Both the position numbers and the translations under genes were made by a program. DNA of 64,000 nucleotides, taken from positions 1-64,000 of IMG/VR virus record IMGVR_UViG_3300020810_001175. One strand, given 5' to 3'. Source of the DNA: a virus. The first letter of the stretch is position 1; each line of letters starts with the position of its first letter. Of this stretch, positions 3,438 to 21,064 are shown one piece after another. The notes beneath the pieces were generated by a model. That model had not been told where the DNA came from. It saw nothing but the letters and a program-made list of their open reading frames with translations, and made no database searches.

Positions 3438-4400
3438 ATGGCTAGTTTAAAATCACTACTCGGAACAAAATCAGATGCATTCGTATCGGTTGAAGAATCG
3501 AATTTAGAAAAAGGACGTATTTACGTTTATACACCTGGTACTAACTATTCAAGACTATGGTGCGGATTCTGTTTCCATCCTGAAGTATCAGGAACTGCTG
3601 TCGTAGAAATTTGGGGAGCAGGTGGATCAGGCGCAGAGATGTGCTGTTGTGGTTTCGGCTTACCTGGAAACGCAGGTGCTTACGTTAAAAAAACAATTTC
3701 AATGGCTCCAGGAGACTATGTTTGCGGATATATCGGACAATCATGTGGTAACTCAGATGATTTATGTTTTAGAGGTTGTTCAGAAGCAACTCAAGTAAGA
3801 TTTTGTATTTCAAACGCAGAAACTTGTGCGTGTGCAGAAGGTGGAAGAGGAGGAATAACATTCTGTTCTACTAACTCATCATTTTATTGTTGTTACAGAG
3901 CAAATGGTTTCTGTGTAACAAGAACAAACAACGACAACTGCGGAATTATTTGTAACCAATGTAGTGGCGCTTGGTGTGCCAGAGGTTACTGTGGTCAAGA
4001 AAACAAATGTGGAAGAATTTCTTGTGTATCAGCGTTCGGCTGTTACCCATCATGTATTTGTATGTTTAACCACCATATTCCAACTCCAGCAGGAATGGGT
4101 TCTAAAGAAGGAAGAATGATCATCTACACAAACGATGATTTCAACGGAACTCAAAACTGGTCAGGTATGGGACATTATCATCATTTAGCAAACCTAGGTT
4201 CAGGCAGATTCCCAACAGGCGGTGTGCCTTGGGGCAGTTGCTGGGACGGCGGTGTTGCTTGTGGATGTTATCAAAACGATGGCTGTATTCCTCAAATGCC
4301 AATCGGTACAGGTGGAAGAGGACCTAACCCATGTCCAGGTGTTAGAGATCACGCAATCAGAGGTGGACACGGAGGAGTGCGAATCAAATTCGTAAGTTAG
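3438..4400 (+). CDS. Cys-rich, Gly-rich protein, paralogue 1 (putative fibre tip/adhesin)
   Basis: About 31 Cys in 320 aa (hand count); EIWGAGGSG..MCCC..GLPGNAGAYVKKT and C-terminal RGGHGGVRIKF Gly-rich domain frame. Confidence 0.6.
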   Translation: MASLKSLLGTKSDAFVSVEESNLEKGRIYVYTPGTNYSRLWCGFCFHPEVSGTAVVEIWGAGGSGAEMCCCGFGLPGNAGAYVKKTISMAPGDYVCGYIGQSCGNSDDLCFRGCSEATQVRFCISNAETCACAEGGRGGITFCSTNSSFYCCYRANGFCVTRTNNDNCGIICNQCSGAWCARGYCGQENKCGRISCVSAFGCYPSCICMFNHHIPTPAGMGSKEGRMIIYTNDDFNGTQNWSGMGHYHHLANLGSGRFPTGGVPWGSCWDGGVACGCYQNDGCIPQMPIGTGGRGPNPCPGVRDHAIRGGHGGVRIKFVS

Positions 4401-4404
4401 TATT

Positions 4405-5421
4405 ATGGCAAGTTTAACTACATTATTACAATCCAAGTATGATTTTGCAGTAGGCAATGAAACAAACCTTGAAAAAGGTAGAATTTATCAATATTATCCA
4501 GGAACATCACGAGGTACAAACTTTAGATGTCACGTGTGTTTCGTAGCACCATCAGACGGTACAGCCACTATTGAAATTTGGGGAGCGGCAGGTTCAGGTG
4601 CAGAGATGTGCTGTTGCGGTGGAGGAATTCCAGGTAACCCAGGCGGTTATGCACGTAAAACAATTACTATGGCATCAGGCTGTTTCATTTGTGGAGTAGT
4701 AGGTGTGTCATGTGGTAACGGTGATGATTTATGTTTTAGAGGTTGTTCAGAACCAACTCAAGTGTGTTGGTTTGGTAACGGCGGTGGAGACGGATGTATC
4801 TGTGCTCAAGGTGGTATAGGTGGAAGAAGTTGGTGTTCAACTGGTTCTTCAATCTACTGCTGTGCAGTAGCATCAGGTTTCTGTTACACACAAGGTGGTT
4901 CAACTTATTGTGGGATCATTTGTAACTTTATGGATTCAGCAAGTTGTCCACAGTTTTGTGCTTATGCATATGGTGGAGATGTGAACTGTTACGGTGGATT
5001 TAGTTGTCATTACTTTAGAGGATGTCAACCTAACTGTAACTGTAGACAAGTTCCAATTATTAAATTCCCTCCAGGAATGATTTCAACGCTGGGTGGTGAG
5101 GTACATTACACAATGGACTCAGACTCAGGTAGATCTCAATGGTCTGGAATGGGCGGATGGATGAATGCATCTCATGGATTTAACCTAGCAACACGTAACC
5201 CTACAACAGGTGGACCATACACGGCTTGTTGGGAAGGTAACAGAAGTTGCGGTTGTTATGAACAACAAGGATGTAACACTTTCTTTCCAGCAGGAATTCC
5301 AGGACAAGGTCCAACACCATGTGATGGCGTAAGAGATCACGCACACAGAGGTGGATATGGTTTAATTAGAATCAAGTTTGTATCACCAACAGATGAATAT
5401 GAACTGGTGGCGCAACCGTAG
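4405..5421 (+). CDS. Cys-rich, Gly-rich protein, paralogue 2
   Basis: Aligns by eye with 3438: MASL, NLEKGRIY, WGAAGSGAEMCCC, DDLCFRGCSE, CGCY, PCDGVRDH..RGG.G.IRIKFV. Confidence 0.6.
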   Translation: MASLTTLLQSKYDFAVGNETNLEKGRIYQYYPGTSRGTNFRCHVCFVAPSDGTATIEIWGAAGSGAEMCCCGGGIPGNPGGYARKTITMASGCFICGVVGVSCGNGDDLCFRGCSEPTQVCWFGNGGGDGCICAQGGIGGRSWCSTGSSIYCCAVASGFCYTQGGSTYCGIICNFMDSASCPQFCAYAYGGDVNCYGGFSCHYFRGCQPNCNCRQVPIIKFPPGMISTLGGEVHYTMDSDSGRSQWSGMGGWMNASHGFNLATRNPTTGGPYTACWEGNRSCGCYEQQGCNTFFPAGIPGQGPTPCDGVRDHAHRGGYGLIRIKFVSPTDEYELVAQP

Positions 5422-5438
5422 AAGGAGTAAATAGTATT

Positions 5439-6413
5439 ATGGCAAGTTTAAAAGGATTATTAACTACTAGAAACCCAGCAGAGATGATTGAAAACAATCT
5501 CGAAACTGGATATATCTATTCGTACACACCTGGTACTAACTACTCTGTATTTTGTAATGGTATTTGTTGGACGGCTAATCAAGCAGGTACAGCCACTATA
5601 GAAGTTTGGGGTGCGGGTGGTTCAGGTGCTAGAATGTGTTGTTGTGGTGATGGTTTACCAGGCAATGCAGGTGCTTATGTTAAAAAAACTATCACAGTAG
5701 AAGCAGATGACACAATAACTGGTCAAACAGGAAACAGTTGTTATTCTCACGATTTATGTTTTTCAGGATGTTCACAATCCTCAGGAATATGTTACATCAC
5801 AGCCAACAACGGTAATGGATGTGTATGTTCAAGAGGTGGATTTGGTGGGAAATCTATGTGTACAACAGGATCTTCTTTATTCTGTTGTTACAGAGCTCAA
5901 GGTTTCTGTTACACAAAATGTAACAATGACAACTGCGGATTAGTATGTAACGTTTGTAACGGACACTGGTGTGCATTAGCATACGGTGGAGATACAAATA
6001 AAAACTGTTGCGGACAATTTTCATGTGCTAGTTTCTTTGGATGCTGTCCACATTGTAAATGTCGGTTCCAACAACACGTGGCTATGCCAGCAGGACTATT
6101 TGCTGAAGAAGGAGCATTAATCACTTTCCAAAAAGAATCTGATGGAACTCCAATGTCACAATGGTCAGGTAACCAATTATTTCAATGGTATGCGGCACTT
6201 AACTTGGCAACTAAAACACCAAGACAAGGTAACCCAGATGCACACTGTTGGAGATCAACAAGATCTTGCGGATGTTATGAGATGCAAGGTTGTAACAACT
6301 ATCTGCCTGTAGGAGCAGGAGGTTTATCTCCTAACCCATGTCCAGATGTTAGAGATCATGGAATTAGAGGTGGATTTGGTGGAATAAGAATCAAGTTTGT
6401 TCCGTCAAGTTAA
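5439..6413 (+). CDS. Cys-rich, Gly-rich protein, paralogue 3
   Basis: Same motif order (MASL, NLETG, WGAGGSGARMCCC, CGCY, PCPDVRDHGIRGGFGGIRIKFV); TAAATA at 5428-5433. Confidence 0.6.
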   Translation: MASLKGLLTTRNPAEMIENNLETGYIYSYTPGTNYSVFCNGICWTANQAGTATIEVWGAGGSGARMCCCGDGLPGNAGAYVKKTITVEADDTITGQTGNSCYSHDLCFSGCSQSSGICYITANNGNGCVCSRGGFGGKSMCTTGSSLFCCYRAQGFCYTKCNNDNCGLVCNVCNGHWCALAYGGDTNKNCCGQFSCASFFGCCPHCKCRFQQHVAMPAGLFAEEGALITFQKESDGTPMSQWSGNQLFQWYAALNLATKTPRQGNPDAHCWRSTRSCGCYEMQGCNNYLPVGAGGLSPNPCPDVRDHGIRGGFGGIRIKFVPSS

Positions 6414-7873: not shown

Positions 7874-8827
7874 ATGAATACACAAACAAAAAGACCTAAG
7901 GCTTTTTTCTTAAATGGTGGTATGGGAAGAATAATTTCGGCCATTCCTGCTTTAGAAAAATATCAACAAGAATCGGGCGATGATAATTTTATAGTTGTGA
8001 TAGAAGGTATCTGTGATATTTTAAAAGGACATCCAACGTTAGATACAAAAACGTATGATATGTACCACAAGAATTTATTTCATACAAAACTGGTAAACAT
8101 GGATATTGTTAGTCCTGAACCTTATAGAGTTAATGATTATTTTAATCAAAAATGCAACATAGCCCAAGCATTTGATATTTTAATAAACAACAAAGGTATA
8201 AGAGATCTTCCAAAATCGACCTTAGTATTAAGCAAAGAAGAATTAATTGCTGGAAAAAAAGTAGTAGATGAAGTGAAAGAAAAATTAAAAAAAGAAAAAG
8301 TAGTTATTATACAGCCATTCGGTAGAGCAATAGAACAAATAGATGGATCATTTGTTGATAAGTCTAATAGAAGTTTAGAATTTTTTAATTTAAAAAATAT
8401 TATTAAAAAATTACAAGAAAAAGATTGGGCAGTAATTTTAATGAGCGAATTTGGAATAGATTTTAAAGATGCAGGATTTAAAGATGAAGTTGCTATGCCA
8501 GAAAAAGTAGAATTAAGACAGTGGGCGGCAATTATAAAATATGCTGATCATTTTTTAGGATGTGACTCATTGGGTCAACATCTTGCTTACAGTTTAGATA
8601 CACCAGCAAGTGTTGTGTTTGGTGCTACATATCCTGCAAATACATCATATCCACAATCAGAAAAATTTAATATTATTGATTTAGGACAAATGGACCGAGA
8701 ATATGATCCTATTAGAATCACATTCGATGAAAGAATAAGCAGAAAAAATGAAAGAATAATGTCAATGACTCCTGAAATAGAAGACTATGTAGTGGCGGCT
8801 GTTAATGGAGATCCAATAGAGGAATAA
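7874..8827 (+). CDS. GT-B glycosyltransferase, GT9/heptosyltransferase-like
   Basis: NGGMGRIISAIPA N-terminus; IIQPFG; LRQWAAIIKYADHFLGCDSLGQHLA (GT9 GxDSxxxHLA-like). Confidence 0.65.
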   Translation: MNTQTKRPKAFFLNGGMGRIISAIPALEKYQQESGDDNFIVVIEGICDILKGHPTLDTKTYDMYHKNLFHTKLVNMDIVSPEPYRVNDYFNQKCNIAQAFDILINNKGIRDLPKSTLVLSKEELIAGKKVVDEVKEKLKKEKVVIIQPFGRAIEQIDGSFVDKSNRSLEFFNLKNIIKKLQEKDWAVILMSEFGIDFKDAGFKDEVAMPEKVELRQWAAIIKYADHFLGCDSLGQHLAYSLDTPASVVFGATYPANTSYPQSEKFNIIDLGQMDREYDPIRITFDERISRKNERIMSMTPEIEDYVVAAVNGDPIEE

Positions 8828-8829
8828 CA

Positions 8830-10659
8830 ATGGACGATATAGAAAAATACAACAAAACAGGTTATATTGCGGCAATTGCCAGAGGACACAATGCAGGTGT
8901 ATGTTTACTAAAAGACGGAGAAGTTGTGTTTTCAATTGAAGAAGAAAGATTATCAAGAAGAAAATACGATGGCGGTCCATATGCTTCTATGGTTGAAATA
9001 TTAAAATACACCGACAAAATAGATTATCTAGTTGTTGCTCATACACAAAGTTTAAATGATAGATCAACAGGTAGAGTAGATTATTCAGGCGATGATGTTT
9101 ATACAGGTATTGCACGAAAACTTGGTCTAATTGATAGACATATCTATGAACAACCTCATCCACAAGTGATTGACTTATCACATATCCATCACAAACTTCA
9201 TGCCGCGTGTGCTTTTTATAGATCAGGATTTGACAAAGCAGTTGCAGTGATTGTGGACGGAGCAGGAACATTTATTCCAATAAAAAATAGTGTATCAGGT
9301 GAAACAACTGTGTTTGAAGTTGAAAGTATATTCAGTTGTGACTATCCAAACGACATATATGCTTTATACAAACATTATGGAACAGGCGAAGCCAGTCCAG
9401 GAGCATTTTACTCAGACTTTGCTTCAGATTCAATTGGTGAACCAGGTAAGACACACGAAGCATTATTCACTGACAGAGCAGGTATTGTAAAAGTTTATGA
9501 AGCAGTAACTCAATATTGCGGATTCACTGCCATTGAAGCAGGCAAAACTATGGGATTATTTCCTTATGGAAAACCCAATGATGTTATTCCACCATTATTC
9601 AAAAAAGAAGGTTACTATTCTTTATCGAATAGAAACTTAATTGTGCCAACATATCCAAACGCATCGATAGTTAACAGTCAACTGTATCCATTTATAGATG
9701 AAAATCCTGCTTCTGATCAAAAAGATGATTGGACACGTATGCAGAATAGAAGAGATTTAGCATATGCAGTACAAAAAGAAACACAAAAAGAATGTTTAGA
9801 TTTAATTTACAAAGCAGTACAGATGAGTGGTTGTAAGAATGTTGTATTTTCTGGAGGATATGGATTGAATTGTGTAGCCAACTATTATTATTTAGAAACT
9901 TTACGCAAAGATGGTATTAATTTTTATGCTGAGCCAGTATCAAACGATGCAGGTACGGCAATGGGAGCGGCAATGTTGTTCTATTACAGTCTAACACAGA
10001 CTAAAGAAAAGAAAGTTGCTGAACCTACACTGTACTTAGGTCCAAAAAGAACATACACAGATGAACAAATCAAACAGATTTGTGATAGACCTGGTGTAGA
10101 AGTAGTGGATGCTGACAATAAATCTGTTGTTGAGTTAATTGCAAATAAAAATATTGTGTCAATTTTTCAAGGACAATCAGAAAACGGTCCTAGAGCATTA
10201 GGTAACAGATCAATATTATATGATCCAAGAGATCCGGATGGTAAAGATCACGTTAATAGAGTAAAACATAGAGAATATTTCAGACCATTTGCTGGAACAA
10301 TACTACATGAATACGTGCATGAGTGGTTTGACTTGCGTGGAATGGAAGAAACTCCTCACATGATGTATGCTGTAAATTGTCAACCTGGCATAGAAGAAAA
10401 AATACCTAGTATAATACACGTGGATGGCACTTGCAGAATACAATCTGTAAAAAGAGAACAAAATCCACTGTACTATGATTTAATCAAAGAGTTTCATGCT
10501 CAAACAGAATGTCCAATCATATTCAATACCTCATTTAATTTAGGCGGAGAACCATTGGTTGAAACACTGGAAGATGCTGTAAGAACACTTCAGCACAGTG
10601 AAATTGAATACTTGTTCTTACCAGAGTATAAAAAATTAATAAAGGTAAAAAATGTCTAA
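8830..10659 (+). CDS. Carbamoyltransferase, NodU/CmcH/TobZ family
   Basis: EEERLSRRK, HHKLHAA, DGAG, EAGKTMGL, GGYGLNCVAN, NDAGTAMG, GPRALGNRS, KHREYFRPFA, HVDGTCRIQ, NTSFN. Confidence 0.92.
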   Translation: MDDIEKYNKTGYIAAIARGHNAGVCLLKDGEVVFSIEEERLSRRKYDGGPYASMVEILKYTDKIDYLVVAHTQSLNDRSTGRVDYSGDDVYTGIARKLGLIDRHIYEQPHPQVIDLSHIHHKLHAACAFYRSGFDKAVAVIVDGAGTFIPIKNSVSGETTVFEVESIFSCDYPNDIYALYKHYGTGEASPGAFYSDFASDSIGEPGKTHEALFTDRAGIVKVYEAVTQYCGFTAIEAGKTMGLFPYGKPNDVIPPLFKKEGYYSLSNRNLIVPTYPNASIVNSQLYPFIDENPASDQKDDWTRMQNRRDLAYAVQKETQKECLDLIYKAVQMSGCKNVVFSGGYGLNCVANYYYLETLRKDGINFYAEPVSNDAGTAMGAAMLFYYSLTQTKEKKVAEPTLYLGPKRTYTDEQIKQICDRPGVEVVDADNKSVVELIANKNIVSIFQGQSENGPRALGNRSILYDPRDPDGKDHVNRVKHREYFRPFAGTILHEYVHEWFDLRGMEETPHMMYAVNCQPGIEEKIPSIIHVDGTCRIQSVKREQNPLYYDLIKEFHAQTECPIIFNTSFNLGGEPLVETLEDAVRTLQHSEIEYLFLPEYKKLIKVKNV

Positions 10660-11635
10660 AAAAACAGCAATATTTTTAAATGGTGGTGCAGGTAGAATGG
10701 TTAGTTCTATACCAGCAGTAGAGAAATACCTAGAAGAAAATCCAGATAAAGATCCTATCCTAGTGTGTGAAGGTGGAACAGATGCTTTCAAAGGTCATCC
10801 TAAATTTCATTTCAGAGCATATGATCATTGGCACAAAAATTTGTTTCAAGATATGCTAAAAGATAGAGATTTAATTTCACCAGAACCATACAGAATATGG
10901 GAATACTACAATCAAAAGTGTAGTCTTGCTCAAGCATATGACATTGCTATCAATAATAAAGGAATTAGAGATTTACCTAAGCCAACCATACGATTAAGTA
11001 AAGAAGAGTTATTAATGGCAAGACAAATGATCACGGAAGTTAAGGAAAAGACAGGTAAAGATAAAATTATTGTATTTCAACCATTTGGCAGAGGTGCTCA
11101 CCCGGATCAAATCAGCGAAAAACAGAAGGAAGAAGGCAAACAACCTGACATCACTGATTCAACAGGAAGAAGTATAGAGTTAAAAAACATTTGGAACATT
11201 GTTAGAAAACTTGCTAAAAATTATGGCGTTATGGTGATGAGTGAATTTCCATTAGATTTTCAAAAACATATGTCTACTCCTATTGCTACTCCTATGAATA
11301 TACACCTAAGAATATGGATGGCTGTTATAAAACAAGCCAATCATTTTGTTGGTTGTGATTCTGTAGGTCAACACGTTGCTTATGCATTTGACAAAACAGC
11401 AACAGTGTTGGTTGGATCAACATACCCTATAAACACATCATTTCCAGATGCAGAAAATATAGACATTATTGATCTTGGCAAGGACGAAAGAGTGTATTCT
11501 CCCATCAGAATCACATCAGATGAAATGAGTGATAGACTGAATGAAGGCATTATGGCAATGGATGAACAAGCAGAAGAGCGTGTGATTAAATCTGTACAAA
11601 GAATGCTTAAACAGAGCAAAAATACCCAAAAATAA
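10652..11635 (+). CDS. GT-B glycosyltransferase, GT9-like; paralogue of 7874
   Basis: NGGAGRMVSSIPA; SPEPYR..EYYNQKC..AQAYDI.INNKGIRDLPK shared with 7874; FVGCDSVGQHVA. Confidence 0.65.
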   Translation: MSKKTAIFLNGGAGRMVSSIPAVEKYLEENPDKDPILVCEGGTDAFKGHPKFHFRAYDHWHKNLFQDMLKDRDLISPEPYRIWEYYNQKCSLAQAYDIAINNKGIRDLPKPTIRLSKEELLMARQMITEVKEKTGKDKIIVFQPFGRGAHPDQISEKQKEEGKQPDITDSTGRSIELKNIWNIVRKLAKNYGVMVMSEFPLDFQKHMSTPIATPMNIHLRIWMAVIKQANHFVGCDSVGQHVAYAFDKTATVLVGSTYPINTSFPDAENIDIIDLGKDERVYSPIRITSDEMSDRLNEGIMAMDEQAEERVIKSVQRMLKQSKNTQK

Positions 11636-11702: not shown

Positions 11703-12137
11703 ATGTTTGATGTATCAAGATTTTTTGGAAAAGGTGACAGAAACACGCTGTTGATGAAGAACGGCTTGAATTTCTCTCACAATGGACCGTATTCAGTTGT
11801 GGAAGATGGACTGGTTTTAGATCAATGGCACGTGAATACATTCACAACAGCAGAATACACAATGAGTGTAGATTACGACACAAACAATAAAGAAATTTTA
11901 AAAGTATTAGTATCAGCAAGTCCCAATCAAAGCAGTTTGTCAATATATGGTAGATCAAATTTAGGAAATAATTTGGTTAAAATATCTAGCGAAGTAAATG
12001 ATTCTTACGTAAGAATTAAAATAGACCCAGCAGATAAGAGCCCGACAGAAAAATATACAGGATCAAAAATTATATTTTCTGCAACATATTTTGCCACACA
12101 GAATGCATTGGTTGGAGGTTCACAGGTAACAAGTTAA
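11703..12137 (+). CDS. Virion structural protein (hypothetical)
   Basis: 144 aa; TAAATA at 11673-11678 and AAGGA RBS; LDQW....FTTAEY...E..K.LV pattern typical of T4-like fibre/baseplate domains. Confidence 0.4.
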   Translation: MFDVSRFFGKGDRNTLLMKNGLNFSHNGPYSVVEDGLVLDQWHVNTFTTAEYTMSVDYDTNNKEILKVLVSASPNQSSLSIYGRSNLGNNLVKISSEVNDSYVRIKIDPADKSPTEKYTGSKIIFSATYFATQNALVGGSQVTS

Positions 12138-12156: not shown

Positions 12157-14019
12157 ATGGCAGTAGTTTTTAAACCTTTCGAAACAGATTACGGATACAA
12201 ATCACCAGGCTTTGTTGTAGACAAAGACGGTAACGTAACAGTTCGAACAATTACTAACACATACACGCCACCAGTTATTCCACCGGCACCAGATTTTAAT
12301 GTTAATGAAACTGCTGGAAATTTTTCATTTTTACAAGATGGCACTGCTGTTGCAGGTTCTAATCCAAACATAACTGTTGAAAGAGGTTCGACATACAGTT
12401 TTGTTCTCAATACCAACAGTATTGCTTTTAACATTTACAAACCAGATGTAGTAGATCCTAATGCATTAGGAATTCTTTACAATACAGGATTATCACACAC
12501 AAACACAGTAACAGGTTTGAATTTAACATCTGGCACAATATCATTCAGTCAAACATGGCAACAACAGCAATCAGGATTTAATAGAACTGCTCAGGTAGTT
12601 GTACCCGACACAACAGGTACACCGTTAGAAGGTAAAAAATTACCTGTGGTAATCAGTTTACACGACAGTGGCTTCACAGCAAGTGATGGTATCACAAATG
12701 TAAATTATATCTCAGACAAAATATTAATTGCACCTCAAGGTTATGGTAATGAATGGAATGTAGGTTATCAAACATCAAAAGCAGATGATATTGCTCTTAT
12801 TAATTCAATTATCAGTAGTTTCAGTTTGTATGATAATGTTGATACAAGAGAAATTACAATTATCGGTTATGGAAATGGTGCACAGTTGGCTTTACAATAT
12901 TCAAATCAAAGTCAAAATGCATCTGTAAAAAATATAATCACTTTCAACGGTTTATTAAACACTGACCAATACAGTCCAGTTGATCATTCTTTTTACAGTT
13001 ACAGTTTAGAAGATCAAAATCAAGATAATTCTACAATTATAAACTGGGTAGCAGTTACTCCATTAGGCAATAAAAATGTCATGATGTTTAATGGAAAAGA
13101 TGATCTAAGATTTTTATACCTAGGCGGAACTATTGATAATCAAGATTTATATAGTGCTCAAGATACTGTGTATGGTATGGCAAAAGCCAATAGTACACTT
13201 GACGCGAAATTATCTGAAGGCACATTACAAAGTGACGGATCAGAACTTTTTAGTTACAGCGACAATGCAATTCAAATGTTTGCATTTACAGGTGTTGCTA
13301 ATAATTTTACACAATATCAAAATGGTATCAGAGCAAGAATACAAACTTTAATTGCAACAGCATCATATTTAGATATTCCAGTTGCTACAACAGTAACAGG
13401 TGCTGAAGCACAAGGAAAACAAGCAGGAACATTAACATACACAGTTCCAGTGGATGCTCCAGATGATCTTTTTTATGGAGATACAGATGGTGTTCCATAT
13501 GGTTCGATCACTGTGGCACAACCAAGCATTATTGGTGTGGGTGTTTTCAGTTCAATTTTAGATACTGGAGATTTATTGGCTGAAGGTGTTAATGCCAACA
13601 TAAGATTACGACCATCAGGCACAGGAACAGTAATAATAAATCCAGAAACAACTGGTACAATCAATAATGTAAACATCAATGTGCAAAATTTAACCACGTC
13701 AGGCACTGTGCAGTTGACTCCGAATGCTGATATCACAATCAGTCCACAATCAAATGGAGCATTAACTATCAGACCAACGACGATAGGAGCAGTAGATAAT
13801 GTTAATATAGGGTCTGTGATACCTAGAAATGGTACCTTTTCAACAATCAATTCTGCTCAAGGAACGTTAAATAACACTACAATAGGATTAACAACTGCGG
13901 CGCAGGCGGCATTTACAACTGCAACTGTTGTAAATAACCCGGCTAACGCCAATGATGTAACTAAAAAGCAGTACGTCGACAACACAGCCACAGTGTTGGC
14001 GATTGCATTAGGAGTATAG
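12157..14019 (+). CDS. Virion/fibre protein with an inserted degenerate alpha/beta-hydrolase (PHB depolymerase/LpqC-like) domain
   Basis: NPNITVERGSTYSF ... GTLTYTVPVDAPDDLFY module split by a hydrolase-like segment (LPVVISLHDSG, APQG..WN, DDIALI, VDTREITIIGYGNGAQLA); fibre-type C-terminus (DVTKKQYVD..AIALG). Confidence 0.65.
   Translation: MAVVFKPFETDYGYKSPGFVVDKDGNVTVRTITNTYTPPVIPPAPDFNVNETAGNFSFLQDGTAVAGSNPNITVERGSTYSFVLNTNSIAFNIYKPDVVDPNALGILYNTGLSHTNTVTGLNLTSGTISFSQTWQQQQSGFNRTAQVVVPDTTGTPLEGKKLPVVISLHDSGFTASDGITNVNYISDKILIAPQGYGNEWNVGYQTSKADDIALINSIISSFSLYDNVDTREITIIGYGNGAQLALQYSNQSQNASVKNIITFNGLLNTDQYSPVDHSFYSYSLEDQNQDNSTIINWVAVTPLGNKNVMMFNGKDDLRFLYLGGTIDNQDLYSAQDTVYGMAKANSTLDAKLSEGTLQSDGSELFSYSDNAIQMFAFTGVANNFTQYQNGIRARIQTLIATASYLDIPVATTVTGAEAQGKQAGTLTYTVPVDAPDDLFYGDTDGVPYGSITVAQPSIIGVGVFSSILDTGDLLAEGVNANIRLRPSGTGTVIINPETTGTINNVNINVQNLTTSGTVQLTPNADITISPQSNGALTIRPTTIGAVDNVNIGSVIPRNGTFSTINSAQGTLNNTTIGLTTAAQAAFTTATVVNNPANANDVTKKQYVDNTATVLAIALGV
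12505..12516 (+). repeat. 12-bp direct repeat ACAGTAACAGGT, left copy
   Basis: Identical to 13390-13401; the two copies flank the hydrolase insert in frame (885 bp apart). Confidence 0.85.
13390..13401 (+). repeat. 12-bp direct repeat ACAGTAACAGGT, right copy
   Basis: Identical to 12505-12516. Confidence 0.85.
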
Positions 14020-14026
14020 AAACAGA

Positions 14027-17000
14027 ATGGCAAAAAAACGTATTAATACATACAAATTTACACCAGGAATTCCACAGAGTGGCAATCTTTTTCCAAATGC
14101 TTGGGCTCAGATCAACGCCAACTATGAGTGGTTGAAAGATGAATCCAGTGCATATATAGATGCTAAAATTGTTGAAGACACAGCGGCAAATTTATATCCT
14201 AACACTTCAACAAGATATCTTAACAACAAAGAATATGTCAAAGCAGAAGTGGCGGCGTGGGTAGCAGTACAAGTGGCAGGCAACATTGCACCATTTGCCG
14301 GTTACACAAAAACAGCAACAGAAATTAAAAACGATGTGGGCAACGTTATTGAAGCGGCATACCTAGACACAAGATACGGCGGAAATGAAAATATAAGAAA
14401 ACAATCACAAACATATTACATTGATGGAGTTTTACAATTAGCGGCGGCAGGTGAACCTGAAATCGCTTACATGGAAAAAGCAAGAGATATTTTCGATCTT
14501 TATATTTTCCCTGGTTTAGCATACAGTTCAATCAACACAGATGGATTAAGTCAAAACACATCAGGAACAAATGCAGAAGTAAATGGTAGAACAGGTTATC
14601 TAGCAAATATCAATGTTGTAATAAATGTTGTTGATAACGGTATTTTACAATTACCTGCTTTAGTAAGTTCTGCATATGTGTTTGCAAATTTTACTTACGA
14701 CAGTGCTCTTTGTCAAAGAGACATGGGGTACAACATCACTGGTATATTAACAGATTTAAGATATGGTGGTAATCAACAATCAAGATACAATGCTTCAACA
14801 TATTGGGTTGGCACAGTATCAGTATTAGACGGTGATAGACAACCAGAATTAGCAGTAAAAAACGAAATCAGAAACATTATAAACAATTATGTGATACCTG
14901 GACAAGCATTTAGTTCAAGACAGTCACCAGTTGTTACACAACAAACAATTTTACCTACTCCAGGTGAAGCAGGAGCCACTGCAAGAGTCACTACATTAGT
15001 TGGAATTATTACAGATGTAATTACAAATGGATTAGACAATTTACCTACTCAAGTAAACAACGGAATTTCAAGTGTAAAAATTCCTGAAAGAGTTGAACAG
15101 AATGAAATATTACTGATTACAAACACAACCACAAACACAGTACTATACACATTCAATGATCCTTCAAAAGGAGCAACAGTAACTTATCAAAGAGAATTTG
15201 CCGAAGACACATCAAACCCAACAGCGTTTGTTGATCCAGATTTTCCTAAAGCATATCATGGCAATGACACCATTACAACAATATTTTTAAATGCAGACAC
15301 ATCTGCAGATAGTAGTACAGACAACATTCAGATTTTTGTTGAAGAAGATGAGATAAGAACAAGACCATATGATTTTGGAACAGATGCAATTGAAAGATTA
15401 AGAGTAGCTCAACCAGAATCAATGCTTGATGCTGACTTTGAGTACGGATTACAGCCTACAAAATGGAGTGCGATTGCTACACAAAGAGGTTACCCATCGA
15501 TCTATGAAGTACCAGGTACAGATTTTGATATAGCAAGTGTGACATCAGATGCATCAGCAGGCACACAAGGTATAGGTTCATCGTTGATCACTGTGACAAC
15601 AATTGGACCACACGGTTTTGAAGCAGGACAACCTTTCACAATAACTGGATTTGACAATGCAGTACAAGGTGCAAGTAGAGCCGCAGGATCATTTGTGGTA
15701 AACACAGTGCCTGACACAAGATCATTTACATATTACGCAAAAGCAAAAGTTGGTCAAGCAAATCCAACAACAATTTCTACAACTTCCACTCAATTGAGAG
15801 AAGGTGACTTCTACACAGGAGCATCAATTGGCTTCCCTTCATTCAGTGTTGCTTCAAACGGTTCATCAGGAAACTTTGTTACCAGTTTAGGAGTGTTAAG
15901 TGGTTCAACCATACTTCCATACACAGGTGTACAACCAGAATTAGGAGCACCGTTAACAGGAACAGGAATTCAACAAGGTACACAAATCACAGCAGTGAAT
16001 GGTTCAGGTGGCGCATTGGCGGCTCCAACTGTTACAGGTGATTACTCAGCAGGTGCAACAGAAATTACAGTGGCAGATTCTTCAGGTATTATTCAAAACT
16101 CTGTGATTGATAGAGGAGATGGATTTGCTGTAACAATTATCAACGTGGCAGGAAACAGTTTAACATTGAGTGCTCCTTTGAATCAAGCATTAATAGGAGA
16201 TGTAACACAGTACACAAATTTACCAGGATTAAATGTTGCTCCACAAGGACAGTTAGCAAGATTTGATATTTTTAGAGTTGGCGGTGCATACTCAGTAAGT
16301 TTAGTAACAAACGGACAAGTTGGTACAGGTCAAGATTACGAAGTAGGTGATGCTATTGTTGTTTCAGGAACAGAATTAGGCGGAGCAACTCCGGCCAATG
16401 ATGCAACAATCACTGTTGAATCAGTCAGCACAGGTGGTGAAATTACTGCCGCATCTATTTCAGGTACAGCATTTACAGGAACAGGTACAGCATCAGCAGT
16501 CACTCCGGTATTCCAAGGAGGTGTTGGTACAGGTGCTCAGATAAATTTAACAAAAAACAATCAAACCTATTCAGTAGCATTAAACAATCCACAGTACACT
16601 AATAAGAGTGTAGATGTATTCCCAGGCGCTGTTGGTGTAGGAGCAGTGTTTGATGTCACAGTTGATGCAGGAGTATATACTGCTGTAACAATTAATAATG
16701 CAGGTGGATCATATATTCAAAATGACGTAATAAGAATTAATGGATCGGTGTTTGGCGGAAATAATGACAATAATTTAGACATAAGAGTTACTGGTGTTGG
16801 CGGATCAGGAGAAATTCAAACAATATCTTGGGCTGGCACGGCGCCTGCTCAGACGGCAACATACAATGCCGCAACATACACAACAGCAAGTGCTGGCGGT
16901 CTAACAGCAGTATTCAACGTAACAAGAACAGGAACAACTTATTCAGCAACAGTATCAGGTATAGGTAATGGATATTCAGCAACTGACACTTTAACTTTTG

Positions 17001-20000
17001 CTGGTACAGTGTTAGGTGGAGCATCACCGGCTAACGATATGACATTAACTGTGGATTCAGTTGATGGCAACGGTGGTATTTTAACTTTTACTGTTACAGG
17101 AACATCTGTTGACACAAACAGTTATCCAGGTTTAAATTCAGGCACAAATGTTGGCGGACAAAATGCCACATTTGATGTTACAATATCAGGCACAAGTTAC
17201 ACAGTGACTTTGAATAATCCAGGTGATGATTATGGAGTTGGTCAACAATTAAAGATTTTAGGAACAAGTTTAGGTGGACAATCACCTACAAATGATGTAA
17301 CAATCACAGTCAGCACAGTTTCAGGAGCAGGAGCAAGTGCTATCGCAACTGTTTCATCAACAGGTACAGCGGCACTGAATGGTACTTCAGGATACAAAGT
17401 AGGAGATTTATTTTATATCAATGGTACAGATGCCGGCGGAGCAACACCTACCAATGATGCTTATGTTAACGTTTCAAGTGTTAATGTAGATGGCGGAATT
17501 ACAGGATTGTCTGTTTCAGGCACAGGTACAGATGCAAATGTTGATTATACCAGCGTTGCTTATACTACAAGTGGTACAGGAACAGGCGCTGTTGTAGACA
17601 TTAACAGAACAGGAACAACATATTCAGCAACATTCACAAACAACGGATCAAACTTTGCGGCTTTAGACACAATCACAATACTTGGTACAGCAGTTGGCGG
17701 TTTATCACCGACTAATGATGTAACAATCACTATCGATACTGTTACAGGTGGAGCGATTGCTACTTACACTGTTTCAGGTACAGCAGTAAATTCTGTAACA
17801 TACACAAATATAAACAAAAGTTTAAGAGTTGGTTCTGGATTAACCGTTGATGTAACACTCAATGCAGGTTCGTACACTCTAGCAATTAACACTGCTGGTT
17901 CAAATTTCAATGCTGATCAAGAATTTAAAATACTTGGTACACAGGTATTTGGATCTTCTCCGACCAACGATTTAACTTTCACAATTACATCAGTTGATGC
18001 TGTGTCAACAGGTGTTGTTACTGCAATTAGTGCCGCAACAGGTACAGCAAACACAGGAACAGGAAATGCATTGAATGTTGAAGGAACAAACAGAACACCA
18101 ATAGGAGTTGGAGCTCAGTTCAGTGTCACAAGAACTAACGACACTGATTCATCAACTTCTTACACAGAATGTACAGTAGTTCAATCAGGAAGTAATTATT
18201 CTGTAGGAGATAGAATTAAAATATCAGGAACAAGTTTAGGTGGACAAACACCAGCCAATGATGTTATCGTAAGGGTTCAAGCAATTAATACAGGCGGTGG
18301 AGTGACACAAAATACACACAGTGGAGTAGCAATTGGTGGTACAGGATTATCAGTTTACTCATCAGTTACAATTTCAGATCCAACTTCAACTTCAATCAAT
18401 CAAGGTGCTACAATCAGTTACTCAGCATTGGCAACAATTAGAGTAACATTTACAACACCACACGGATTGGTTCCAGGAAATGCTTTCTTGGTTGTTATTC
18501 AATCTGATGATGGTGCAAACAATCACATATTGGCTTCAGGTCCATTCTTGGCAACATCAATTCCGAGTTCTACAAGTTTAACATACCAAGTGAGATCACC
18601 TGGTGCAATCACTGATTCAGGTTGGCAAGGTGCAGTTTATGGCAGACCAGATTCATTCTTCGTACACAGACCATTTGATGGTGGTGTTCAATTAGGTACA
18701 GGTGGACCGGCACACGGTGCACAGGCAATACGTCAATCTAAAAAATATATCAGATATCAATCAGGTAAAGGTTGTATGTACACAACTGGTGCTCTATTTG
18801 CTCCATCATACGACATATTAAACCTAACAGCAGATGGTATTTCAGCAGGATCAACAATTACTGTGACAACAGATGATGTGGATCACAATTTACAAGTTGG
18901 TGCTCAAATTAGATTGGTAGGTATAGCAACATCAGGCTATGATGGAACGTATACAATAACATCAGTTCTAAATGAAAGATCATTCACAGTAATTGCTAAA
19001 ATTACATTGGGTGGTACAACTCCTGAATTTACAGATCAACCACAAGTTTCATTATACAAATGGAATGGTGCTACTGTGAGATCAGGTATATTTGATGATC
19101 AAAACGGAATTTTCTGGGAATATGATGGACAAACTACGAATGCTGTACAAAGAACTGCCACAAGACAATTGGCTGGTACAGTTGCAGTTACTCCAAATTC
19201 AAACACAGTGACAGGTACAGGTACAAGATTTAGAGAACAAATCAAAGCAGGTGACAGAGTGGTTATCAGAGGTATGACTCACGTTGTTTCAGGTGTTGAT
19301 AACAACACAACAGCATATATTACTCCAGATTACAGAGGAGTAAATGCATCATCAGGTGTGAAAATGTGTGCTGTGGTTGACAAAAAAGCAAAACAATCAG
19401 AATTCAACAGAGATAGATTAGATGGTACAGGACCAAGCGGATACAATTGGGACGTATCTAAAATGCAGATGATCGGAATTCAATTTTCATGGTACGGGGC
19501 TGGATTTATTGACTGGATGTGTAGAGGACAAAAAGGTGAATTTATATTTTCTCACAGAATGAGAAACTCAAACGTTAACACAGAAGCGTTTATGAGAACA
19601 GGTAACCAACCAGTACGTTACGAAGTTACAAATGAAGGACCAAACGGTAAATTATTAGAAAATATTGATGCTAGTGCAACATCTATCACATTAGAAGATG
19701 CTAGTTTCTTCCCAACAACAGGTGGTACAGTTTATATTGATAACGAAATTATTACATTCACAGGTATCACAAACGATACATTAACAGGTTGTACAAGAGC
19801 GGCACAGTTGACAAACTTTGCGGCAGGTGCCACAAGATCATATTCAGCAGGTGCGGCGGCTCCACACTTTAGAAACACAGGAGTTGTATTAATATCTAAC
19901 ACAGCGTCTCCAATCATATCACACTGGGGATCAGCGTACTTAACAGATGGTAATTTTGATGAAGACCGAGGATACTTATTCAGTTACTCAGGATCAGGAT

Positions 20001-21064
20001 TAGCATTATCAACTATCAAACAGACTGTGTTCCTAATGAGATTGGCTCCATCAGTTTCCAATGCCTTAATTGGAGATTTAGGAGATAGAGATCTATTAAA
20101 CAGAGCTCAGTTGCTACTGGATGGTATTGAAATTACCACAGAACCAGTTACAGCAGGACAAACACAAGGTCAGTTGGTTATTCAGGGAGTAATAAATCCG
20201 CAGAACTATCCTATTGATCCAGCAGACATAGGTTGGACAGGTCTACAAACAACTGCCCAAGGTGGTCAGCCAAGTTTTGCTCAAATTGCTCCGGGTGGAT
20301 CTGTTAACTGGAACGGTGGTGCTTCAATCACAACTCAAACATCAGATACTCAAGCACTGATGACATCAACTTCTAATAACTGGTTCAATGTTGGAGGAAA
20401 CAGAAATTACACTTACTTCTTAGAAGCAGATTGGGAAGGCAAAGGACACGTGGTAGGTATGTCAGTTACTTCAGGTCAATTCCCAGCAAACACAGTGGTC
20501 ACACAGATTCAAGATAACGGATCTTACTACTTTGTAAGATTCTCAAATAGACACACAGGAATATCGGCAGGACAAGCAGTTACTTTTTCTTATGGTGGTG
20601 ATCTAACAGGAACAAACTACTTGTTCTTTGATCCTGCATCATGGGAAGCCGCAGGTGCTACAAGTGGTACAGAAGTAGACACTTCAGTTTCTACAGAATT
20701 TCCACCAGGCACAACTGTACAACAGGTGTATGCTAAAACTGTGTTTGGTTCAACAGAATATTACAGAGTTGAATTTAACCAAACGTTTAGTGGAACAATT
20801 TCGGCGGCAAGTTCGATTACATTCAAATTTGGTAATCCACCATATGCACAACCAGGTGAAACAATATTCTCATTCATTGCCCAACCAGGTGAAAGAGCAA
20901 CATTGGCTCTAGACAAAATCAAAGTGTTAACAAACACTACACTGGGCGGTAGAGGTACATTCCCGAACGGTCCGGACGTATTAGCAATCAACGTATTCAG
21001 AACTGCTGGTACAGGAGATGTTTCAGGTACGGTAACACTTCGTTGGTCAGAAGCACAAGCGTAA
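14027..21064 (+). CDS. Giant virion structural/tail fibre protein with tandem beta-rich repeats
   Basis: 2345 aa, Gly/Thr/Ser-rich; about 8 repeats with GG.(T/S)P.ND core; N-terminal D.RYGGN repeats; lectin-like RYQSGKG...IQFSWYGAG region. Confidence 0.75.
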   Translation: MAKKRINTYKFTPGIPQSGNLFPNAWAQINANYEWLKDESSAYIDAKIVEDTAANLYPNTSTRYLNNKEYVKAEVAAWVAVQVAGNIAPFAGYTKTATEIKNDVGNVIEAAYLDTRYGGNENIRKQSQTYYIDGVLQLAAAGEPEIAYMEKARDIFDLYIFPGLAYSSINTDGLSQNTSGTNAEVNGRTGYLANINVVINVVDNGILQLPALVSSAYVFANFTYDSALCQRDMGYNITGILTDLRYGGNQQSRYNASTYWVGTVSVLDGDRQPELAVKNEIRNIINNYVIPGQAFSSRQSPVVTQQTILPTPGEAGATARVTTLVGIITDVITNGLDNLPTQVNNGISSVKIPERVEQNEILLITNTTTNTVLYTFNDPSKGATVTYQREFAEDTSNPTAFVDPDFPKAYHGNDTITTIFLNADTSADSSTDNIQIFVEEDEIRTRPYDFGTDAIERLRVAQPESMLDADFEYGLQPTKWSAIATQRGYPSIYEVPGTDFDIASVTSDASAGTQGIGSSLITVTTIGPHGFEAGQPFTITGFDNAVQGASRAAGSFVVNTVPDTRSFTYYAKAKVGQANPTTISTTSTQLREGDFYTGASIGFPSFSVASNGSSGNFVTSLGVLSGSTILPYTGVQPELGAPLTGTGIQQGTQITAVNGSGGALAAPTVTGDYSAGATEITVADSSGIIQNSVIDRGDGFAVTIINVAGNSLTLSAPLNQALIGDVTQYTNLPGLNVAPQGQLARFDIFRVGGAYSVSLVTNGQVGTGQDYEVGDAIVVSGTELGGATPANDATITVESVSTGGEITAASISGTAFTGTGTASAVTPVFQGGVGTGAQINLTKNNQTYSVALNNPQYTNKSVDVFPGAVGVGAVFDVTVDAGVYTAVTINNAGGSYIQNDVIRINGSVFGGNNDNNLDIRVTGVGGSGEIQTISWAGTAPAQTATYNAATYTTASAGGLTAVFNVTRTGTTYSATVSGIGNGYSATDTLTFAGTVLGGASPANDMTLTVDSVDGNGGILTFTVTGTSVDTNSYPGLNSGTNVGGQNATFDVTISGTSYTVTLNNPGDDYGVGQQLKILGTSLGGQSPTNDVTITVSTVSGAGASAIATVSSTGTAALNGTSGYKVGDLFYINGTDAGGATPTNDAYVNVSSVNVDGGITGLSVSGTGTDANVDYTSVAYTTSGTGTGAVVDINRTGTTYSATFTNNGSNFAALDTITILGTAVGGLSPTNDVTITIDTVTGGAIATYTVSGTAVNSVTYTNINKSLRVGSGLTVDVTLNAGSYTLAINTAGSNFNADQEFKILGTQVFGSSPTNDLTFTITSVDAVSTGVVTAISAATGTANTGTGNALNVEGTNRTPIGVGAQFSVTRTNDTDSSTSYTECTVVQSGSNYSVGDRIKISGTSLGGQTPANDVIVRVQAINTGGGVTQNTHSGVAIGGTGLSVYSSVTISDPTSTSINQGATISYSALATIRVTFTTPHGLVPGNAFLVVIQSDDGANNHILASGPFLATSIPSSTSLTYQVRSPGAITDSGWQGAVYGRPDSFFVHRPFDGGVQLGTGGPAHGAQAIRQSKKYIRYQSGKGCMYTTGALFAPSYDILNLTADGISAGSTITVTTDDVDHNLQVGAQIRLVGIATSGYDGTYTITSVLNERSFTVIAKITLGGTTPEFTDQPQVSLYKWNGATVRSGIFDDQNGIFWEYDGQTTNAVQRTATRQLAGTVAVTPNSNTVTGTGTRFREQIKAGDRVVIRGMTHVVSGVDNNTTAYITPDYRGVNASSGVKMCAVVDKKAKQSEFNRDRLDGTGPSGYNWDVSKMQMIGIQFSWYGAGFIDWMCRGQKGEFIFSHRMRNSNVNTEAFMRTGNQPVRYEVTNEGPNGKLLENIDASATSITLEDASFFPTTGGTVYIDNEIITFTGITNDTLTGCTRAAQLTNFAAGATRSYSAGAAAPHFRNTGVVLISNTASPIISHWGSAYLTDGNFDEDRGYLFSYSGSGLALSTIKQTVFLMRLAPSVSNALIGDLGDRDLLNRAQLLLDGIEITTEPVTAGQTQGQLVIQGVINPQNYPIDPADIGWTGLQTTAQGGQPSFAQIAPGGSVNWNGGASITTQTSDTQALMTSTSNNWFNVGGNRNYTYFLEADWEGKGHVVGMSVTSGQFPANTVVTQIQDNGSYYFVRFSNRHTGISAGQAVTFSYGGDLTGTNYLFFDPASWEAAGATSGTEVDTSVSTEFPPGTTVQQVYAKTVFGSTEYYRVEFNQTFSGTISAASSITFKFGNPPYAQPGETIFSFIAQPGERATLALDKIKVLTNTTLGGRGTFPNGPDVLAINVFRTAGTGDVSGTVTLRWSEAQA

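Follow-up and report, generated by a model that had tools for sequence, protein, structure and literature searches.

Active sugar-esterases and depolymerases on the receptor-binding proteins of bacteriophages are already well known. Virion-associated esterases and deacetylases of tailspikes and fibres, such as those of the Vi phages, c341 and the SGNH-type fibre esterases, place an esterase-type module on a receptor-recognition protein, and most of these virion-associated enzymes belong to another fold (SGNH) than the one considered below. The known modules are active and appended, whereas the domain described here appears to be naturally dead and nested inside another module. It lies in P0001, a 620-residue protein encoded in a 64,000-nucleotide stretch of viral DNA (the whole stretch analysed, hereafter the window), which represents positions 1 to 64,000 of the 84-kb IMG/VR record IMGVR_UViG_3300020810_001175, a record with an estimated completeness of 24%. 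The predicted esterase-like domain of P0001 is bordered on each side by one copy of a 12-nucleotide direct repeat, ACAGTAACAGGT. We consider it probable that a now catalytically dead esterase was inserted once into a protein of the tail-fibre block and kept as a pseudoenzyme, and that the repeat at its borders is coincidental. The review PMC5380687 describes lipopolysaccharide deacetylases in tailspikes, and catalytically inactive depolymerase forms that still bind their substrate, engineered inactive ones being used as binders. A literature search of limited extent, too limited to call the case unpublished, found no description of this protein family or of a naturally dead, nested esterase of alpha/beta-hydrolase type in a fibre-module protein.

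The closest described counterparts of the domain itself differ from it in setting and in active site. In cyanomyoviruses, the phrog_2576 proteins (S-SSM4 CYXG_00060, ACG-2014d Syn7803C102_72 and S-MbCM7 gp177), which are annotated as hypothetical in their records, carry an esterase-like domain with 24-28% identity to that of P0001, and their genes likewise lie beside giant structural, baseplate or tail-fibre genes. In contrast to the P0001 domain, the cyanomyovirus domain is terminal or stands between domains (after YHYH, or after a subtilase and before a plastocyanin-like domain) rather than nested, and its Ser and His are kept. The feruloyl esterase 9j07_A and the Esterase_PHB family resemble the P0001 domain at the profile level, whereas the nucleophile, the oxyanion Gly and the His are gone in P0001. 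Outside the phage family, the best matches are two bacterial secreted tandem-esterase proteins, P0060 and P0061 (E=5e-43 and 2e-40), which differ in being free multi-domain secreted proteins with, as judged by eye, a signal-peptide-like N-terminus.

Evidence for the insertion comes from relatives of P0001 with and without the domain. A search of 5.8 billion proteins returned 55 relatives, comprising 47 of 618-626 residues, one of 729 residues, five fragments and two of 342-343 residues. The two short proteins (P0058 and P0059) are without the residues that occupy positions ~116-405 of the window protein. Among the 21 IMG/VR loci related to P0059, 20 have an insert-free gene of 339-347 residues at the same genomic position, and the remaining one (L023) has a weak partial match and no shared neighbours; the insert-bearing form was found in 17 IMG/VR loci and 26 metagenome loci. 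The order of genes is conserved and runs from a 327-residue phrog_8954 protein through a carbamoyltransferase, a 144-residue protein and the P0001-type gene to a giant structural protein. A profile of the insert-free N-terminal module matches P0001 as two halves ~290 residues apart, with residues 60-126 on profile columns 28-99 (E=7e-12) and residues 404-462 on columns 87-145 (E=5e-16). The esterase profile, in turn, found nothing in the 21 insert-free loci, and the esterase domain is present as a single copy in the window's own 84-kb record.

The insertion site can also be read directly in the insert-free proteins, which carry GLSHTS-LDGE-TTVTG-IDAQ (P0059, L004) or GLVHSN-GTTG-ANAQ (P0235). 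A single TVTG stands at the site in one insert-free clade (P0059, L004, L005), and it is the second copy in the window that corresponds to it, ATTVTGAEAQ aligning on ETTVTGIDAQ of P0059 in MAFFT. When the insert was removed in silico and one repeat copy kept, the resulting 50-residue junction segment aligned to P0235 with no gap at the junction and 27 of 49 residues identical; in the alignments with four further insert-free proteins, a gap of 5 residues opens immediately ahead of TVTG. A host sequence that is contiguous in homologues is thus split by a domain that exists independently. These comparisons establish the predicted esterase-like domain as a real in-frame insertion into a protein of the fibre/structural block. 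An earlier reading of the window from its letters alone (the sequence-only reading) had already proposed an in-frame capture of a hydrolase domain whose removal would restore a continuous module, and both proposals are borne out by the shared gene order, the split profile match and the gapless junction; the insert-free homologues with a single TVTG that it suggested seeking by alignment do exist, as distant orthologues.

How often did the domain come or go? In a maximum-likelihood tree of the flanks (329 columns; 36 of the 48 full-length insert-bearing proteins, near-duplicates being left out, and 15 insert-free proteins), a single branch with support of 100/100 separates the insert-bearing from the insert-free proteins, which amounts to one change. 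The presence of the insert thus goes back to a single origin or a single loss, and the insert-bearing clade has diverged down to 49% identity. An insertion must have happened at some point, because the domain forms a family of its own elsewhere and interrupts a module that several deep clades have in one piece.

The host module shows some features of its own. The 729-residue relative (P0051) carries a second insertion of ~110 residues elsewhere in the N-terminal module (alignment columns about 65-180). By eye, the module looks similar to plastocyanin-like domains, both those of S-MbCM7 gp177 and that of a 566-residue protein encoded upstream of the insert-free gene in L004, and a cupredoxin-like identity was considered and rejected for lack of support at the profile level: hhalign gave the insert-free alignment a probability of 0.3% against S-MbCM7 gp177 and of 1.3% against an alignment of phage plastocyanin-like domains, and a PDB profile search with the same alignment returned no cupredoxin and only a GH10-associated chain (E=0.72). 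Paralogues of the P0001 flanks were not found within the window.

The identity of the inserted domain was approached by several kinds of comparison. The insert matches phrog_2576 over residues 128-371 (E=3.8e-21), and tblastn finds it in hypothetical proteins of 65 cyanophage records at the identities given above (best E=3e-13). Against cyanophage proteins with GYSNG and GVSNG elbows, BLASTP gives 28% and 27% identity (E=7e-19 and 5e-19). The closest solved relative is the feruloyl esterase 9j07_A, whose profile match (E=1.5e-5) extends over the strand-HG, PQG..W and elbow motifs, and the nearest neighbours by language-model features are Esterase_PHB (PF10503) and alpha/beta-hydrolase clusters at 0.93. 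Searched alone with HMMER, the domain matches 378 library representatives at E<=1e-3 and 131 at E<=1e-10; these are free proteins of ~300 residues and also many fusions, and two family members are named poly(3-hydroxybutyrate) (PHB) depolymerase by the Joint Genome Institute. By its profile matches, the insert belongs to a serine-esterase family of the PHB-depolymerase / feruloyl-esterase-like kind. The likeness to LpqC and PHB depolymerases suggested by the sequence-only reading stands at this level of family and feature neighbourhood, but not for PF10503 itself, which gave no match to P0001 in hmmscan at E<=1.

Departures from the usual active site are also seen elsewhere in the wider family. 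The bacterial-looking P0061 has two tandem esterase domains, the second of which (residues 338-579) independently reads LHDN and GVGNG; this Ser-less domain differs from the phage clade in keeping the His of its C-terminal motif. P0199, a protein of 1077 residues, matches the elbow region partially in four repeats, and the nucleophile position there is Cys (GYCFGG).

In the P0001 clade, the catalytic residues are gone. Gly239 aligns with the Ser of the cyanophage elbows GYSNG, GVSNG and GTSNG and of GKSNGG in 9j07_A, and Asp170 aligns with the Gly of the oxyanion motif H-G. At the nucleophile column, Ser is present in 138 of the 146 matches outside the clade that cover the elbow, whereas all 53 clade members that cover it have Gly. 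At the oxyanion position, the clade has D in 47, N in 3 and E in 2 of 52 proteins, so that HG occurs in none, whereas G is found in 139 of the 148 domain rows covering this column, the family's own rows included. The catalytic His, carried by relatives in G-x-G-H or T-G-H, is absent from all 40 columns 360-399 in each of the 54 family proteins; the acid position reads D in 43, E in 6 and N in 5 of these 54. The loss of the nucleophile Ser, the oxyanion Gly and the catalytic His across the whole clade marks the domain as one predicted to be catalytically dead. The GYGNG elbow and the HD in place of HG, both of which the sequence-only reading took straight from the window, are confirmed, and its suggestion of a non-catalytic domain extends from one protein to the clade.

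The dead domain has been kept. The insert is under purifying selection and is conserved as strongly as the rest of the protein, with a median dN/dS (ratio of nonsynonymous to synonymous substitution rates) of 0.187 in the insert, 0.162 in the N flank and 0.184 in the C flank (63-66 pairs from 11 relatives of exactly 620 codons, chosen from 39; pairs with dS >2.5 or undefined were dropped), in line with the earlier proposal of a retained domain. Near-invariant residues are concentrated in motifs that, in active relatives, surround the active site, namely LH-D, IAPQGY-N-WNVGY, YDNVD and G-x-G-x-G-x-Q-LA. Since the catalytic residues have been lost and yet the domain is conserved like the remainder, the pseudoenzyme appears to be kept for a non-catalytic job. 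The former active-site pocket is most likely retained, with a role in ligand binding.

The repeat at the borders requires a separate account. In the window, ACAGTAACAGGT occurs exactly twice, on the plus strand, with a spacing of 885 nucleotides (295 codons); in 100 shuffles, this 12-mer never appeared twice or more often. In the frame of the P0001 gene, each copy encodes T-V-T-G, as the sequence-only reading had reported with the same positions and spacing, and the bases flanking the copies differ, so that the repeat is exactly 12 nucleotides long. Direct repeats of at least 12 nucleotides spaced 100-1500 nucleotides apart number 67 in the window, about one per kb, and a 12-nucleotide repeat within a 1.9-kb gene is therefore not unusual in itself. 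Many of the 67 lie, in frame, in the giant structural gene (14027-21064) and in three tandem paralogues (3438-6413). The unusual feature of this repeat is its position at both borders of the domain, borders that are set independently by the insert-free alignments and by the split profile match.

Comparison with relatives shows how recent the repeat is. None of the insert-bearing loci read, 17 viral and 20 from metagenomes, has the perfect repeat; the metagenome count covers 20 of 22 loci, two being unmatched by the junction pattern (L045, L059), and leaves out the partial loci L064 and L066-L068. In-register identity of the two junction words is 6-10 of 12 in the 20 metagenome loci and also 6-10 of 12 in the nearest relatives retrieved, which are 81-83% identical to P0001. 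In the 17 viral loci, the longest word shared by the 60-nucleotide junction stretches is 6-9 nucleotides, usually at another offset. Among the relatives compared, TVTG stands at both sites only in the window and its 99% cluster; the 83% relatives have EVTG and TLSG as border peptides, and the 81% relatives TVTG and TLTG. Synonymous sites are saturated, with a dS of ~0.8-1.9 between the window and every relative retrieved. At such distances, and with an insertion older than the divergence to 49% identity, the nucleotide identity of the repeat cannot date from the insertion. The codons used are each the first or second choice for their residue (ACA for 66% of Thr, GGT for 50% of Gly and GTA for 36% of Val), and one Leu-to-Val change in a TLTG site, in preferred codons, suffices to make the repeat. 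The perfect 12-nucleotide repeat appears to be a recent, lineage-specific coincidence and neither an insertion scar nor an excision device.

Table 1. Positions in the window of the P0001 gene and of its parts.
Feature	Positions	Strand	Basis or family reading
Fibre-module protein gene (P0001), 620 residues	12157..14019	+	Open reading frame list and translation
Host module, N-terminal part, residues 1-116, ending GLSHTN	12157..12504	+	Aligns to insert-free orthologues
Repeat copy 1, ACAGTAACAGGT = T117-V118-T119-G120	12505..12516	+	Family site reads x-V/I-T/S/N-G
Inserted esterase-like domain (predicted), residues 121-411 (291 residues), catalytic residues lost	12517..13389	+	phrog_2576 and PDB profile matches; no counterpart in insert-free orthologues
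His169-Asp170 at oxyanion motif (active relatives His-Gly)	12661..12666	+	Alignments
Nucleophile elbow G-Y-G-N-G, with Gly239 (codon GGA, 12871-12873) in place of Ser	12865..12879	+	Alignments
Asp316, position of the triad acid	13102..13104	+	Aligns to D of NGTSD / NTND in Ser-bearing relatives
V380-A381-N382 at the catalytic His site (relatives G-x-G-H / T-G-H)	13294..13302	+	Alignments
Repeat copy 2, ACAGTAACAGGT = T412-V413-T414-G415	13390..13401	+	Family site reads T-L/V-T/S-G/D/E/N
Host module remainder and conserved C-terminal repeat region, residues 416-620, with stop	13402..14019	+	C-terminus invariant with and without insert

The history that we propose would begin with one ancient event, in which a complete domain of a secreted serine-esterase family entered a short turn of the N-terminal module, between ...GLSHT(N/S) and T-T-V/L-T-G-x-(D/E)-A-Q. 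Clade-wide changes would have turned the Ser into Gly and the oxyanion Gly into Asp, Asn or Glu and removed the catalytic His. The resulting pseudoenzyme would hold an esterified glycan or a similar host-surface ligand in the remodelled pocket of the former active site. The perfect repeat would have appeared recently, in one lineage, as two similar border peptides written in preferred codons.

Several points weigh against this history. The flank tree is unrooted and does not give the direction of the change, gain or loss. The Pfam hydrolase models stay under their curated cut-offs (DLH 14.7 versus 21 bits, Abhydrolase_2 14.7 versus 23, and DUF3530 also below), and the alpha/beta-hydrolase-like fold of the insert, its pocket and the single fold of the host segment are all predictions from sequence. 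The flanks of P0001 match no PHROG or Pfam family, and it is from the neighbouring genes only that P0001 is taken as a probable virion protein of the tail-fibre/structural block. As regards the repeat, the probability of identical codons given two TVTG peptides is P=0.035, and the peptides are identical only in this lineage, which makes the coincidence a rare one; a small recent conversion event may have produced the repeat instead. Furthermore, the two borders have similar peptides throughout the family (x-V-T-G and T-L-T-G), which is compatible with a possible ancient duplication of about four codons at the junction.

What, then, does the domain do? One specific answer is that the dead esterase, CE1/PHB-depolymerase-like, became a lectin-like receptor-binding pocket for an esterified host-surface glycan, converted once and kept long, with the likeness of the border peptides as the remnant of a four-codon duplication. 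We put this combination forward tentatively, as possible though doubtful in all its parts at once. A different answer, which we regard as somewhat unlikely, is that the domain binds no ligand and serves as a structural spacer, a decoration or an assembly platform, for example by contacting the neighbouring giant fibre protein. Purifying selection shows that the domain matters and not why, and the same block holds other swapped-in decorations, as in the enlarged form of the upstream gene, with its repeats and plastocyanin-like domain, and in the second insertion of P0051. However, the strongest conservation falls on the motifs lining the active site of active relatives, a pattern that would be more typical of a retained pocket than of a packing surface.

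The polarity of the change could also be the reverse: the insert would have been present in the common ancestor of every form sampled and lost once, by a clean deletion, to give the insert-free forms. The unrooted tree requires one change either way. Against this reading, the domain is one member of a widespread family that exists independently, and the module that it interrupts is in one piece in several deep insert-free clades; moreover, these clades differ by 5 residues at the site, where a single clean deletion predicts otherwise. A deletion history is in our view improbable.

More doubtful still, and highly improbable, is the proposal of the sequence-only reading that the 12-bp repeat reflects microhomology or duplication at the insertion and enables reversible, precise excision, giving two structural variants in the population. 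In its favour, the two copies match perfectly, keep the reading frame and coincide exactly with the domain borders, the junction left by removing the insert and one copy aligns without a gap to a natural insert-free protein (P0235), and the family-wide likeness of the border peptides would fit an old duplication of about four codons. However, the perfect repeat occurs in 0 of 37 related loci, and a neutral 12-nucleotide scar could not survive at such dS since an event older than 49% protein identity. Excision fares no better, with one change among the 51 rows of the tree. A search of proteins shorter than 341 residues, among which a 325-residue deletion form would fall, gave 32 matches and no close insert-free allele: every match above 60% identity was a collinear fragment, and the insert-free ones were at 34-52%. 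Since their flank identity is at most about 52%, the insert-free forms are orthologues in distant phages and not alleles. Of 24 public sequencing runs, all available as assembled contigs, 20 contain the stretch; contigs from 4 of these 20 (four studies) are >99% alike, bridge both junctions and have the insert present; they contain no deletion joints and both 12-mers are unchanged, a result that says nothing on rare deletions, as assembled contigs drop rare variants. The idea of a repeat-driven on/off switch is to be dropped. A further predicted protein, P0214 (208 residues, on a 12.6-kb ENA contig), is 82% identical to residues 413-620 and has its first residue right at the second junction (M-T-D-A-E-A-Q), possibly because the gene is frameshifted or its start was miscalled.

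Least likely of all, the domain would still be an enzyme that uses another nucleophile or chemistry: His169, Ser207 and the acid position (D/E in 49 of 54) remain conserved, and the cyanophage relative P0004 with LHDD keeps its Ser, so HD alone is not disabling, but Ser, oxyanion Gly and His are jointly gone in every one of the 52-54 family members, and Ser207 and His169 are also conserved in active relatives, which makes them framework residues of the family and not new catalytic ones.

The genes of the window include those for a contractile tail sheath, for tail-fibre-like proteins and for a large terminase; the terminase has its best match in the phage collection at 53% identity among PA5oct-like jumbo Pseudomonas phages. 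In the same collection, the region has no DNA-level match among phage records, and the insert-free protein has no match either. Metagenomes of salt marshes, lagoons and seawater, from 16 studies, include contigs with near-identical DNA. The source phage is an uncultured marine jumbo myovirus.

The P0001 gene lies between a gene encoding 144 residues and one encoding 2345 residues, the latter of which matches virion structural protein families; its neighbour genes match tail fibre (phrog_9851) and virion structural protein (phrog_5838) families, and P0001 itself has a Tailspike_C match at E=0.019, under the cut-off of that model. Just upstream (7874-11635), a NodU/TobZ-like carbamoyltransferase gene is flanked by two phrog_8954 paralogues. 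This arrangement is not tied to the esterase insert, because it is kept in insert-bearing and insert-free phages. The 144-residue product of the adjacent gene (11703-12137) has a form of 564-566 residues in insert-free phages of the P0059 type (L004:6275-7975; L005-L012), with a shared N-terminal part, about four internal repeats and, at the C-terminus, a plastocyanin-like domain in which the His/Cys/His/Met ligand pattern is retained. Domain gain and loss seem to be common in this gene block. In addition, a 125-residue antisense ORF (13473-13850, minus strand) lies inside the P0001 gene and is open in many relatives; its openness is most easily explained as a side effect of the sense frame, which is conserved and stop-poor.

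If the proposed history is true, P0001 would be a clear natural example of a former enzyme that came to serve for binding, shared by a wide clade of jumbo phages from the ocean, lagoons and salt marshes. The family also contains matched natural controls: orthologues without the insert occupy the same locus, and relatives in cyanophages keep the Ser. It would thereby be well suited to the questions of what a pseudoenzyme binds and how the insertion of a domain reshapes host recognition.

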